64,000 nt of DNA from assembly GCA_030583765.1 (NCBI GenBank), contig CP129474.1, positions 405,168 to 469,167 on the forward strand, read 5' to 3'. A model generated the notes under the pieces. The model did not search any database, had not been told where the DNA came from, and saw only the letters and a list, made by a program, of their open reading frames with translations. The position numbers and the translations under genes are program-made. This document shows positions 29,078-37,431 of this stretch, piece by piece. How positions within the stretch are numbered: position 1 is the first letter of the stretch; the number at the start of each line of letters is the position of its first letter. This DNA comes from Minisyncoccota bacterium (GTDB taxonomy: Bacteria > Patescibacteriota > Minisyncoccia > 2-02-FULL-40-12 > GWA2-44-9).

Positions 29078-29707
29078 TTACTCAAAGACGCGCTCTGCAT
29101 AGACCGCGATGCGACGATAGTTTGTGCCAACCGGCCAGCAACTGAGGAGCACAAGGCTGGGGGTGTTTGTCTGCTCGAGCTCGGTGAGGCGCGCATCATC
29201 GGCAAACGGGTTAAAGACAATAGATTTTTTCATTTCAAATACAAACGTTCTCCCGTCTTCATATCGCACATAGAAGCGCTCGCCTGGGTGGAGCTTGCCG
29301 AGCAAGGCAAACACGGAGCCGTATGCTCCACGATACCACGGATACGCTGAGCTGTGTCCTAAAACGATTGCGATGCCGTCTTGTCCCGGTTTCACGCTAT
29401 TACCATAGTGGACAACGCCGTCTTCGAGGCGCTCATAGATATCATCGTTCTGTGGCGGAACGTTAAAGACTATTGGAGCATCAACGCCGAGCCGATCAAT
29501 AACGAGGCGGGCGTTATGAGGGAGCGGACGCTGGGCGATGTCGTCGGCGAGAGGAAAGAGCGTCGGGATTCCAGCGAGAGAGTCGTCTCGGATAATAGTG
29601 CCCGGAGCAACGAAGTACCGAATGTTTGCGCCCACAAAGCGAATATTGAGGAGGCTAAAAATAATAATGAATGAAAAAGTAAAAATGCCCGCAAAGCGAA
29701 TTTTCAT
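29078..29707 (-). CDS. Sortase (transpeptidase)
   Basis: An N-terminal TM segment, then LVIDRLGVDAPIV, a catalytic His in IVLGHSS, Cys in LVLLSCWP, and Arg in YRRIAVYA. This is the sortase TLxTC/His/Arg triad pattern. Confidence 0.75.
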   Translation of the reverse strand: MKIRFAGIFTFSFIIIFSLLNIRFVGANIRYFVAPGTIIRDDSLAGIPTLFPLADDIAQRPLPHNARLVIDRLGVDAPIVFNVPPQNDDIYERLEDGVVHYGNSVKPGQDGIAIVLGHSSAYPWYRGAYGSVFALLGKLHPGERFYVRYEDGRTFVFEMKKSIVFNPFADDARLTELEQTNTPSLVLLSCWPVGTNYRRIAVYAERVFE

Positions 29708-29788
29708 GGCACGCGCATGGTTGTGGAGATGTGGGGGCATATAACACACAGCGCCCTCGCGGGCGCTGTGTAGTGTGCATCACAAACG

Positions 29789-32654: not shown

Positions 32655-32729
32655 TGGTGCCCTCGCGTGGAATCGAACCACGATTACAAGTTCCGGAAAC
32701 TTGCGTCCTATCCGTTGAACGACGAGGGC
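32655..32729 (-). tRNA. tRNA-Arg (anticodon CCG)
   Basis: Cloverleaf GCCCTCG...CGAGGGC-A-CCA, anticodon loop TTCCGGA, and T-arm GTGGTTCGATTCCAC. Confidence 0.85.
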
Positions 32730-32770
32730 TTTCATGAACTCTAGTATGCGCCACTCGGTGCTGACAAGCA

Positions 32771-32794
32771 AAAACCCGATACATCGGGTTTTTG
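32771..32794. terminator. Bidirectional hairpin AAAACCCGAT-acat-CGGGTTTT between tRNA-Leu and tRNA-Arg
   Basis: Read directly from the sequence. Confidence 0.45.
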
Positions 32795-32798
32795 CTTG

Positions 32799-32885
32799 TG
32801 GTGCCCGGGGTGGGAATCGAACCCACACGGCCTTTCGGCCACATCATTTTAAGTGACGTGCGTCTGCCAGTTTCGCCACCCGGAC
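32799..32885 (-). tRNA. tRNA-Leu (anticodon UAA), type II with a long variable arm, CCA encoded
   Basis: Acceptor GTCCGGG/CCCGGGC, anticodon loop CTTAAAA, variable arm TGGCCGAAAGGCCG, and T-arm GTGGGTTCGATTCCCAC. Confidence 0.85.
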
Positions 32886-33356
32886 TTTGCTTTTGTTTTT
32901 TCCTCGATGCGTTGCCTGAAGGCTATGACAATTAGGGCAAAGAATGCGTAAGTTTTCAATCCTATTATCGCTGTGGTCGCCGTTTATATGATCAAGCTCG
33001 ACTGGTATTCTGCCATCTTTTGCAGTTTTTGCCCAGCTGCACTCCTCGCATTGTGGCTGTTTTAATCCTGCCAAGAAAAGACGCTTTTTTAACTTAAAAC
33101 TTTGGAAAGCGCTACCACGCACAAGGATGTCTTCTAGTGTTCTACGTGGTTTCCCGATGCCTCGGAGACCCTTATTCCACGCAGATCCAGTGAAATGATC
33201 TATGGGAACTTGTAGCGCTGTTAGCCTCGCCTTAATGCTTTGGTAGTTCCCGCCGGCGGGGATGAGGTTGAGGCGACTAATAACTTCACGGATGCTTTTG
33301 CTCCGTTGTGTGGCTGTGCGAAGTTTAGCGTCGCTCCACGTGCGTCCTCTTGGCAT
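32844..33356 (-). CDS. Free-standing HNH endonuclease (homing-endonuclease-like), inserted between tRNA genes
   Basis: ELDHINGDHSDNRIENLRILCPNCHS carries the HNH His-Asn-His and Cys4 motif. The last roughly 40 nt of the ORF overlap the 5' half of tRNA-Leu. GC is lower than the flanks. Confidence 0.8.
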   Translation of the reverse strand: MPRGRTWSDAKLRTATQRSKSIREVISRLNLIPAGGNYQSIKARLTALQVPIDHFTGSAWNKGLRGIGKPRRTLEDILVRGSAFQSFKLKKRLFLAGLKQPQCEECSWAKTAKDGRIPVELDHINGDHSDNRIENLRILCPNCHSLQATHRGKNKSKVRVAKLADARHLK

Positions 33357-33412
33357 AAAGCTATTATACCACAGGTAAGCGTTTTAAAAAATGATGCGAC
33401 TACCTAAACGAA

Positions 33413-33486
33413 TGAGGCGCAGGTGGGAATCGAACCCACGCGTGGGAGTTTTGCAGACTCCTGCGTTACCACTTCGCCACTGCGCC
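33413..33486 (-). tRNA. tRNA-Cys (anticodon GCA)
   Basis: Acceptor GGCGCAG/CTGCGCC, anticodon stem-loop GGAGT-CTGCAAA-ACTCC, and T-arm GTGGGTTCGATTCCCAC. Confidence 0.85.
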
Positions 33487-33495
33487 AGAGATGAG

Positions 33496-35061
33496 TTATG
33501 AAAGTGCTTGGGCAACTTTCTCTTCAGTGTATGCCTCTAGAATGTCTCCTTCAGCGATTTCGCGTTGTGCGCCGGTGATATCAATGCGCAGACCCGCTTC
33601 TAACCCCTCGCGGACATCTGCGGCATCTTCCTTATTATGCTGGAGCTGGGTGAGCTTGCCAACATATGCATCGCCAACGCGTAAGAGGGTGCCGCGGCTC
33701 ATCTTTCCTGAAGTTACGCGCCCACCCACAATACATGACCGCCCCTCTTTTTTAAAGACTGCTAAAATGCGCAACTTTCCTTGGGCGGTTGCGATTGTTT
33801 CGGGTTCGAGAAGTCCTGCCATTGCCTCTCGCACGGCATTGACCAATTCATAGATAATATCAAACGTGTGAATCGAAACTTTTTCTCGTTCTGCGAGCTT
33901 TTCAACGGATGCGCCAGCGCTTACACGAAATCCAAAAATTGCTGCTTGGCTTGTACGTGCTGTGCGCACGTCAGCATCGGTGATAGAGCCAACGCCGTAA
34001 TCTAAAACCGTAATACCTACGCGAGTAGAGCGGATCGCGCGCAGTGCACTCTCAAGCGCCTCAAGAGAACTCGTAACGTCAGCGCGGAGAATGATGGGAA
34101 GCGTTTTCTCATATGCTGGCGTATCTGCCATCGCTTCTTTCAAAAACTGGAAGAGGGGAGCAATGTTTATGTTGGTATCGCGAGCTTCTTCCGCTTCTTC
34201 CTTTGTGGCTCGCGCATGGAGTTCACGACCAATAATAGGGGCCTCATTCCAGCCGGTGATGAGTATTGGTTGTGAGGGAACCGCTTCGGTCATAGACGCG
34301 CCCGTGAAGTCTTCGAGTGAGCGAATCTTTGCAACCATAGTGCCCACCGACACCCAGTCGCCAGTGTGTACGGTACCTTTCGTGACGAGCGCCGTTGCTA
34401 CAAATCCTCGGCGCTTGTCGAGGTGTGATTCAATAATAATGCCTTCGCCGGGAACGGCTCGTTCATCGGGGAGTTCGGCGAGGTCTGCTACCAACAGCAC
34501 CATGTCGAGTAGCTCATCAATGCCCGTGCCGTTCTTGGCGGAAATTTCTACAGCGGGCACGGTGCCGCCCCATTCTTCTACGAGCACTGACTCTTGGGCT
34601 AAGTCTTGTTTGACCTTTTGAGGGTTTGCGCCCTCGCGATCTACCTTATTAATAGCAACGACAAACGGAATTCCTGCCTCTTGAATGATAGAAATCGCTT
34701 CTTTCGTTTGTGGCTTGACGCTTTCATCGGCAGCAACCACAAGGATGGCGACATCGGCGACACGTGCGCCACGAGAGCGAATGGCGGTGAACGCCTCGTG
34801 CCCGGGGGTGTCCAAAAAGGTAATGAGACGGTTCCGTGCGGTGGCTTGGTAGGCTCCAATATGCTGGGTGATGCCTCCTGATTCGCGCTCAGCAACGCGC
34901 GTCTTACGAATGGTATCGAGAAGCTTTGTTTTGCCATGATCCACATGCCCAAGTACAACCACGATAGGTGGGCGTGCGGCTTGTGTGTTTGGTGTAGATG
35001 CTGGTGCCATAGTGAGCGACTCACCATACCACGCTTTTTTGGCGTTGACAATGAAACTCAT
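33496..35061 (-). CDS. infB: Translation initiation factor IF-2 (short form, G domain to C-terminus)
   Basis: [28 protein letters not shown], and a C-terminal beta-barrel region; 521 aa. Confidence 0.9.
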
Positions 35062-37012: not shown

Positions 37013-37104
37013 GGAGGCGTGTCAGAGTGGTCTAATGTACCTCTTTGCTAAAGAGGCAGGGGCGTTAAAACCCCTCGGAGGTTCGAATCCTCCCGCCTCC
37101 GCCA
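37013..37104 (+). tRNA. tRNA-Ser (anticodon GCU), type II, CCA encoded
   Basis: Acceptor GGAGGCG/CGCCTCC, anticodon loop TTGCTAA, long variable arm CAGGGGCGTTAAAACCCCTCG, and T-arm GGAGGTTCGAATCCTCC. Confidence 0.85.
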
Positions 37105-37189: not shown

Positions 37190-37276
37190 GGAGAGGTGGC
37201 TGAGTGGTTGAAAGCAGCGGTTTACTAAACCGCCGGGCTCGCAAGAGCCTCGTGGGTTCGAATCCCACCCTCTCCG
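37190..37276 (+). tRNA. Ser-like type-II tRNA whose anticodon loop reads TTACTAA (apparent anticodon ACU); possibly tRNA-Ser with a G34A change, or a pseudo/variant tRNA
   Basis: Acceptor GGAGAGG/CCTCTCC-G, 3-bp D-stem GCT/AGC, anticodon stem GCGGT/ACCGC, long variable arm CGGGCTCGCAAGAGCCTCG, and T-arm GTGGGTTCGAATCCCAC. CCA is not encoded. Confidence 0.6.
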
Positions 37277-37431
37277 CATATGCTTTTGAACATGCCTTTA
37301 GGCATATTTAAAAGCATCTAGTGTGGAAAGTGGGGCGGCATTCGAACGGCCGGAGTGATGTTGCGTCACCAGATGCAACCACGAGGCCCGGCCCTGAGGC
37401 TATGACGAGCGACGGCGAGTCAGAGACCGAA

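Follow-up and report, generated by a model that had tools for sequence, protein, structure and literature searches.

A predicted free-standing HNH homing endonuclease at the tRNA-Leu(UAA) locus of Patescibacteria

Why a gene for an HNH endonuclease should stand inside a bacterial tRNA operon, and run into the tRNA gene behind it, is the question raised by a 64,000-nucleotide (nt) stretch of the genome of a Minisyncoccota bacterium (contig CP129474.1, positions 405,168 to 469,167; hereafter the window, whose own numbering is used throughout). An open reading frame (ORF) of 170 amino acids (aa) lies there between tRNA-Leu(UAA) and tRNA-Cys(GCA), and an earlier note on this DNA had taken it for a mobile, free-standing HNH gene in an unusual place. 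The comparison with relatives leads us to read it as a free-standing homing endonuclease gene specific for the tRNA-Leu(UAA) locus, with an extended -10 promoter of its own and co-transcribed with the tRNA; the specificity is predicted, and we put the probability of this reading at roughly 0.7.

The HNH gene and its overlap with tRNA-Leu(UAA)

The ORF starts with ATG, contains DHINGDHSDNRIENLRILCPNCHS and occupies positions 32844-33356 of the minus strand. ARAGORN and Rfam placed tRNA-Cys(GCA) at 33414-33486 and tRNA-Leu(UAA), with its CCA encoded, at 32799-32885, both on the minus strand (65.9 and 50.4 bits; gathering score 29), and Pfam HNH_3 recognized the protein, so that the ORF and the tRNA-Leu call of the earlier note are both borne out. 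The overlap with the 5' half of the tRNA, estimated in that note at about 40 nt, is 42 nt long (32844-32885): the 3' end of the ORF coincides with tRNA positions 1-42, and the stop codon TGA (32846-32844) lies just 3' of the anticodon. The order of genes, all on the minus strand, is infB, tRNA-Cys, the HNH ORF, tRNA-Leu, a hairpin, tRNA-Arg and a gene for a 925-aa surface protein.

Linkage to tRNA-Leu(UAA) across Patescibacteria

Homologs were scanned in one genome per GTDB species, and the best 80 of at least 510 relatives were kept; these come from Saccharibacteria, Paceibacterota, Moranbacteria, Magasanikbacteria, Falkowbacteria, Peregrinibacteria and other groups. A same-strand tRNA-Leu(UAA) was found 3' of the HNH gene in 79 of the 80 loci, between -101 and +31 nt from the end of the ORF, and in the 80th the region where the tRNA would be is cut off by the end of the contig. 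Abutting tRNA-Leu(UAA) is a defining trait of this HNH family and no oddity of the window; what had been called an unusual placement is the rule of the family, and HNH genes stand in the tRNA clusters of phages as well. The distance from the end of the conserved protein core to position 1 of the tRNA is 3-70 nt (typically about 16), and the HNH stop codon lies inside tRNA-Leu in 36 of 81 loci (about 44%).

On the other side of the gene, 46 of 83 loci have a tRNA-Cys(GCA) no more than 300 nt upstream, usually at a distance of 53-70 nt from the ATG. The same order, tRNA-Cys and then tRNA-Leu, is seen in glyW-cysT-leuZ of Escherichia coli (with a spacer of 12 nt), and the HNH gene of the window therefore sits inside an ancient tRNA operon (cysT-leuZ).

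Occupied and empty sites in relatives

With the IF-2 of the window as an anchor independent of the HNH gene, 80 metagenome loci were collected (IF-2 identity 42-91%), 50 of which have tRNA-Cys followed by tRNA-Leu(UAA). The spacer between the two tRNA genes is at most 28 nt long in 21 of these 50 loci, 61-76 nt in 4, 135-315 nt in 10 and at least 589 nt in 15. The HNH gene is present in only 4 of the 50, each time abutting tRNA-Leu, an occupancy of about 8% as estimated from this one clade. It is missing from the closest relatives, L084 and L085 (IF-2 91% and 90% identical), where the Cys-Leu spacer measures 15 nt, and present in the sister strain L253 (infB 95.7% identical in nucleotides) as a copy with 97% nucleotide identity.

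The alignment of the window with L084 and L085 delimits the insertion: homology is perfect through tRNA-Cys and the following CATT (33414-33411), breaks at 33410, resumes at the 3' end of tRNA-Leu and runs on through the hairpin and tRNA-Arg. The differing block of about 610 bp, with a 5' non-coding part at 33357-33410 (minus strand), holds only the HNH ORF and tRNA-Leu, and the flanks on both sides are syntenic with these HNH-less relatives. The hairpin (32764-32799), which lies directly 3' of tRNA-Leu, is real, as the earlier note had claimed: it is bidirectional and terminator-like, with a perfect stem of 16 bp (-29.1 kcal/mol, z = -5.6) and A- and U-runs on either side. It lies outside the insertion, however, together with tRNA-Arg(CCG) (32655-32729, minus strand; ARAGORN and Rfam, 57.2 bits), because both are present in the HNH-less L084; the tRNA-Arg gene belongs to the ancestral Cys-Leu-Arg cluster.

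A gene conserved at this position in all relatives would look different: distant lineages hold it at the same site, but close relatives are without it. This combination marks a site-specific mobile gene, not one conserved by vertical descent, and the empty sites in L084 and L085 support the mobility proposed earlier.

Other genes were found at the same address. The Cys-Leu(UAA) spacer of some HNH-less relatives contains a LAGLIDADG-type ORF (L116, 5688-6398; also L145 and L134), which in L116 matches Pfam LAGLIDADG_3 with 39 bits (cut-off 22.5) and represents a second class of homing endonuclease there. In L106, L125, L117, L131, L145, L133, L098, L134, L101, L115 and L119 the spacer carries a gene of the dTDP-glucose/GDP-mannose dehydratase type, sometimes accompanied by further sugar-nucleotide genes. 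The Cys-Leu spacer behaves as a hot spot for cargo.

The HNH protein

The protein of the window matches Pfam HNH_3 (PF13392) with 31.4 bits (cut-off 24.8), whereas Pfam HNH (PF01844) scores just under its cut-off (20.9 vs 21.4). Its best PADLOC model is 'homing endonuclease' (1.7e-19), and PHROG 10822, 'HNH endonuclease', matches it over the full length (1e-38). About 7,100 database clusters match it, nearly all of them 156-172 aa long and from Patescibacteria (the Candidate Phyla Radiation, CPR); two of these CPR members were named 'F-TflIV' by their depositors. Neither a sequence search of solved structures, which gave no significant match, nor NCBIfam, which gave no family-level model, added to this.

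The conserved core (residues 1-154; 32895-33356, minus strand, as delimited by alignment, Pfam and the AlphaFold model) spans W7 to H150-R151-G152-x-N154 and ends 9 nt before tRNA-Leu in the window. The catalytic residues D122-H123, N135 and H144 and the zinc ligands C103, C106, C140 and C143 are invariant in 101 homologs. In the AlphaFold (AF2) model (mean predicted local distance difference test, pLDDT, 83.8) the predicted architecture is an N-terminal three-helix domain of DNA-binding type, a linker and a beta-beta-alpha-metal HNH domain with a zinc site of two CxxC motifs; the modelled HNH fold matches the HNH domains of ZRANB3 and McrA, and the modelled N-terminal domain matches small helix-turn-helix DNA-binding domains.

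Beyond N154 the picture changes. The C-terminal tail with the stop codon (32844-32894, minus strand) shares 32844-32885 with tRNA-Leu and in the window is translated tRNA (VRVAKLADARHLK); it is unconserved among the homologs, many of whose tails likewise resemble translated 5' ends of tRNAs, and the final two blocks of 10 residues have a pLDDT of 58 and 49. As judged from these alignments, the overlap of ORF and tRNA is probably a by-product of tight abutment and not a selected feature. This would account for the extension of these ORFs into tRNA-Leu by gene callers.

Membership in ZorE or IscB was rejected (NCBIfam 20 bits vs a cut-off of 600, and 16.5 vs 175, the catalytic motif alone being matched), as was a place among the restriction and defence HNH proteins (McrA, ZorE, Cap5, Cas9/IscB), since family-specific extra domains are lacking and no partner genes were found within 10 kb. 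The earlier statement that no methylase or Cas gene accompanies the HNH gene agrees with our survey, in which none was seen within about 10 kb. We regard the ORF as probably an intact, free-standing homing-endonuclease gene whose nuclease activity is predicted.

Predicted promoter and transcript

The predicted extended -10 promoter box TGGTATAAT (33363-33371, minus strand; read 33371-33363) ends 6 nt before the HNH ATG, and there is no Shine-Dalgarno sequence. This arrangement recurs in the family: a match to TATAAT in at least 5 of 6 positions was found upstream of the HNH gene in 63 of the 80 loci compared to 26% of shuffled sequences, the TGn extension in 46 of 80 compared to 15%, and the distance from the end of the box to the ATG is 6-7 nt in 46 of 80. 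From this spacing a leaderless or near-leaderless HNH mRNA is predicted. There is no room for a promoter between the HNH core and tRNA-Leu, and a terminator-like hairpin follows the tRNA; the HNH mRNA and tRNA-Leu should therefore share a precursor, and probably do so, and this joint precursor may also be read through from tRNA-Cys.

We considered whether the HNH gene is preceded by a generic inverted repeat or operator and discarded the idea, as such repeats occur in 39 of 80 loci and in 43% of shuffles, which is no enrichment. The pair GGTAAACG...CGTTTACC is found upstream in a subset of the loci only.

Selection and horizontal transfer

The HNH gene is maintained under strong purifying selection. 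The ratio of nonsynonymous to synonymous substitution rates (dN/dS) is 0.04-0.12 between species and 0.073 between the window and the sister strain L253, where 14 nucleotide changes include 3 amino-acid changes. Across the phylum, HNH identity levels off near 65%. In every pair in which both could be computed, the HNH gene has a lower dS than the adjacent infB (e.g., 0.84 vs 3.4, 1.5 vs 4.8 and 1.8 vs 4.5), although these values are rough because dS is near saturation; in L064 and L133 the HNH proteins are 90% identical and the IF-2 proteins 62%. Because dS of HNH is below that of infB, the gene appears to have moved between lineages after their split, which argues for a history discordant with that of the host genome, i.e., for horizontal spread.

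tRNA-Leu alleles and clues to the target

Between the window and L084 or L085 tRNA-Cys is identical (73/73), whereas tRNA-Leu shows only 72% identity, a divergence like that found in relatives whose IF-2 is 55% identical. The tRNA-Leu allele therefore differs together with the HNH gene, the two making up the single block of about 610 bp. Compared to the window, tRNA-Leu of the sister strain L253 (segment 32799-32894) has a single base change, G28 to A, which turns the G28-U42 wobble into an A-U pair and at the same time makes R167 into H in the overlapping HNH tail.

One base pair of the anticodon stem is associated with the nuclease gene. The 30:40 pair is C:G in 71 of the 83 HNH-linked alleles with a canonical pair (about 85%) and in 14 of 46 unlinked alleles (30%); Fisher's test gives 4e-10 overall and, within the clade (5 of 5 HNH-linked vs 14 of 46), p = 0.005, both for sequences that are not independent. 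The pair is C:G in the window and G:C in L084 and L085, and the tRNA-Leu genes linked to phage HNH genes showed no pattern at 30:40. We treat it as a lead to the cleavage target or to immunity only.

Remnants resembling 5' halves of tRNA-Leu upstream of the HNH promoter were significant in 5 of the 80 loci and in none of 400 shuffles (L046, L015, L010, L051 and L069; about 20-75 nt upstream of the ATG, nhmmer E-values 2e-6 to 2e-4). All five loci are without an adjacent tRNA-Cys, and the pseudo halves have a sequence other than that of the intact tRNA-Leu that follows; in one of the five, L046, the anticodon loop of the pseudo half aligns with the -10 box. As a general feature of the family they were rejected, since they occur in only 5 of 80 loci and the pairwise scores of the others stem mostly from tRNA-Cys or from words resembling a -10 box.

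Phage and GC-rich relatives, and known systems

Relatives of the window HNH made up 482 of 600 candidates from viral contigs, and a same-strand tRNA-Leu(UAA) adjoins the HNH gene in 56 of the best 80 of these, where the tRNA usually ends 39-67 nt before the gene. Long variants of 272-287 aa, in which the N-terminal module is present as three tandem copies, were found in contigs of about 70% GC (L164-L166, L250, L251); in 5 of 5 loci they are convergent with tRNA-Leu(UAA), touch its 3' end and stand next to an alpha/beta-hydrolase gene. The window locus itself is chromosomal and not phage, being flanked by infB and by surface-protein and pilus genes and syntenic with its relatives.

Parallels are known from the tRNA clusters of an actinophage and a T4-like phage. 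In Gordonia phage Norvs (L248, MZ388552.1, 1201-1692) the annotated HNH coding sequence gp26 overlaps the downstream tRNA-Asn by 10 nt, and in Aeromonas phage avDM5 (L247, 1501-1884) an unannotated HNH-like ORF runs into an annotated tRNA-Leu. Both are full-length homologs of the window protein (31-48% identity) within tRNA clusters, but they belong to phage genomes and have various partner tRNAs, and no specificity for a single tRNA is known for them. HNH genes in phage tRNA clusters have been proposed to drive the turnover of the tRNA repertoire (PMC6409571).

Phage T5 offers another parallel. Its F-TflIV (hegA; relatives F-TflI and F-TflII) is likewise a free-standing HNH gene inside a tRNA gene region, 23 nt after tRNA-Ile2; site-specific cleavage by the T5 enzymes is reported, in the account of Akulenko et al. 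(2004) given in PMC5714182. The gene, annotated F-TflIV in phage BF23, aligns to residues 72-154 of the window protein only (44% identity, E 1e-15), so the N-terminal DNA-binding domain is not shared; it is phage-borne and has other tRNAs as neighbours, whereas the window gene is chromosomal, tied to one tRNA and abuts or overlaps its 5' end.

The logic proposed here is also that of T4 SegB, a free-standing nuclease encoded among tRNA genes which cleaves the tRNA genes of relatives without SegB and drives the inheritance of itself and the surrounding tRNA region (PMC2330249). SegB differs in having a GIY-YIG fold, in recognizing the generic T-psi-C motif and cutting many tRNA genes, and in acting during phage co-infection and not on a bacterial chromosome. 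Patescibacterial tRNA introns with HNH genes have been described, and in Bacteroidota tRNA-Leu(UAA) can contain group I introns that carry HNH genes (PMC13011429); these introns have in common with the window gene the class of nuclease, the phylum of the host or the tRNA targeted, as well as the rationale of mobility, but the window has an intact tRNA and an intergenic HNH gene, with no intron. In the literature we found no description of a chromosomal HNH family fixed to tRNA-Leu(UAA) in Patescibacteria, and the chromosomal, phylum-wide, single-tRNA form appears to be undescribed, a variant of the strategy known from phage tRNA clusters.

A proposed homing cycle at tRNA-Leu(UAA) and its alternatives

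As a homing endonuclease, the HNH protein would nick or cut tRNA-Leu(UAA) loci that lack the gene; repair from an HNH-bearing copy, with the conserved tRNA genes as homology arms, would then copy in the HNH gene and its linked tRNA-Leu allele. The gene would be transcribed from its extended -10 promoter as a leaderless mRNA, through tRNA-Leu and up to the hairpin. RNase P releases tRNAs by 5' processing; here the cut that frees the tRNA would, in the window and in about 44% of the loci, remove the stop codon and leave a non-stop mRNA. Such a message would be a substrate for trans-translation, a plausible brake that keeps a toxic nuclease scarce.

Several observations weigh against this reading. 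The classical cycle of homing endonucleases predicts degraded relics, and none were detected in the spacers of 135-315 nt (hmmsearch on six-frame ORFs, E up to 1). For the difference between the window and L084/L085, the outgroup L086 did not distinguish gain from loss, all three tRNA-Leu alleles being 72-80% identical. The alleles of tRNA-Cys and tRNA-Leu barely track IF-2 identity in the clade (r = 0.17 and 0.22; L084-L163), and in the HNH-less L089 and L091, whose IF-2 is 97% identical, tRNA-Cys is 78% and tRNA-Leu 76% identical; conversely, L072, L096, L110, L111 and L131 (IF-2 about 59% identical), which include loci with and without the HNH gene, have one and the same 87-nt tRNA-Leu. The locus is thus a recombination hot spot, and since alleles are reshuffled even without the HNH gene, the replacement of tRNA-Leu is not attributable to it alone. 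Co-transcription, the leaderless start and truncation by RNase P are deduced from sequence only, and members of the family more distant than the best 80 of at least 510 may sit elsewhere. Finally, HNH identity exceeds IF-2 identity in 98% of genome pairs, which together with a dN/dS like that of housekeeping genes also fits a function that benefits the host.

A stronger version of the homing reading, in which the HNH gene and tRNA-Leu(UAA) form one mobile cassette that overwrites an essential single-copy tRNA gene, is tentative and on balance doubtful. The nuclease would cut a naive tRNA-Leu(UAA) near the anticodon stem, and repair would install the nuclease gene together with a resistant C30:G40 allele of tRNA-Leu; the displaced 5' half of the old tRNA would stay upstream as a scar, its anticodon loop (CTTAAAAT) recruited as the -10 box, and exchange between Patescibacteria and their phages would make tRNA-Leu alleles sweep horizontally through the phylum.

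The alternative that fares best is that the nuclease has been domesticated for a host function linked to tRNA-Leu(UAA) and is maintained by cellular selection, not by homing. Such a nuclease might degrade invading phage DNA or other foreign DNA with a different tRNA-Leu(UAA) allele, or regulate the tRNA operon. The low dN/dS between species and the conservation of HNH above that of IF-2 suit it, as do the conserved promoter of the gene and the C:G preference at the 30:40 pair of HNH-linked alleles, and the phage tRNA-Leu(UAA) genes beside homologous HNH genes make the tRNA gene a plausible battleground. We nevertheless consider it unlikely, because neither the closest relatives nor 46 of 50 members of the clade have the gene, because it has no partner genes and its resemblance to defence HNH proteins is confined to the catalytic motif, and because dS of HNH below that of the host genes indicates transfer.

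Less probable still is an immobile relic, i.e., an old, inactive insertion that persists because deletions in the tRNA operon would risk the expression of tRNA-Leu. The HNH ORF has lost a stop codon of its own and reads into the tRNA, the gene is common to the window and the sister strain L253, and its GC content, 47.8% compared to a window mean of 52.8% (standard deviation 3.5% in windows of the same size), lies at the 5th percentile; the lower GC pointed out in the earlier note is thus there, but the dip is marginal, as would fit a long residence. Decay, however, is not what the gene looks like: all catalytic and zinc residues are intact, only 3 of the 14 nucleotide differences from L253 come with an amino-acid change (dN/dS 0.073), and a stop codon inside the tRNA, found in 44% of the family, is normal for it. 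Two very improbable readings take the gene as the edge of a larger phage or island attached at tRNA-Leu, or as an ORF encoded by a group I intron of tRNA-Leu(UAA). Integration at tRNA genes is classic, phage contigs commonly contain relatives of the protein, and group I introns with HNH genes are known from tRNA-Leu(UAA) of Bacteroidota (PMC13011429). Both readings are nevertheless refuted at the window locus, where only about 610 bp differ from the empty site between syntenic flanks, that segment has no integrase ORF, Rfam (E up to 1) detected in the insert neither a group I intron nor any other structured RNA, and the HNH gene stands between two intact tRNAs, outside any intron or intein, with tRNA-Leu uninterrupted.

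If homing at tRNA-Leu(UAA) is what maintains the family, a strategy known from the tRNA genes of a few phages would have established itself in the chromosomes of an entire bacterial superphylum, with the universal cysT-leuZ tRNA operon as its single fixed address, while also being at work in phages and GC-rich bacteria. Thousands of natural variants of a small nuclease, presumably reading one highly conserved DNA target, would be at hand for the study and engineering of recognition. There would be a concrete mechanism for the horizontal replacement of an essential tRNA gene, at a locus whose alleles do not track the host genome, and a natural mRNA-tRNA fusion transcript in which 5' processing of the tRNA should strip the stop codon from nearly half of the members, perhaps as a built-in brake on a toxic enzyme.

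Surroundings of the locus

Within about 10 kb the neighbours of the HNH gene are IF-2, DUF11/PKD surface proteins, a sortase and type IV pilus genes. Upstream of tRNA-Cys lies infB (33496-35061, minus strand, from the ORF list), whose Pfam GTP_EFTU/IF-2 domains were found on the identical gene of locus L001; its product is short (521 aa) and is without the long N-terminal region of typical bacterial IF-2. A promoter-like site was noted ahead of tRNA-Arg(CCG) at 32738-32767. Following directly on the tRNA cluster, the segment 21929-32566 (minus strand) encodes three very large surface proteins (881, 1345 and 925 aa; DUF11, PKD and Thr-Pro repeat linkers), and a sortase gene stands at 29078-29749. 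Further upstream, at 37190-37277 on the plus strand, is a tRNA-Ser with the anticodon ACU (loop UUACUAA, Rfam tRNA 60.6 bits), which begins 85 nt after a normal tRNA-Ser(GCU) (37013-37104); a serine tRNA with A34 is unusual in bacteria.

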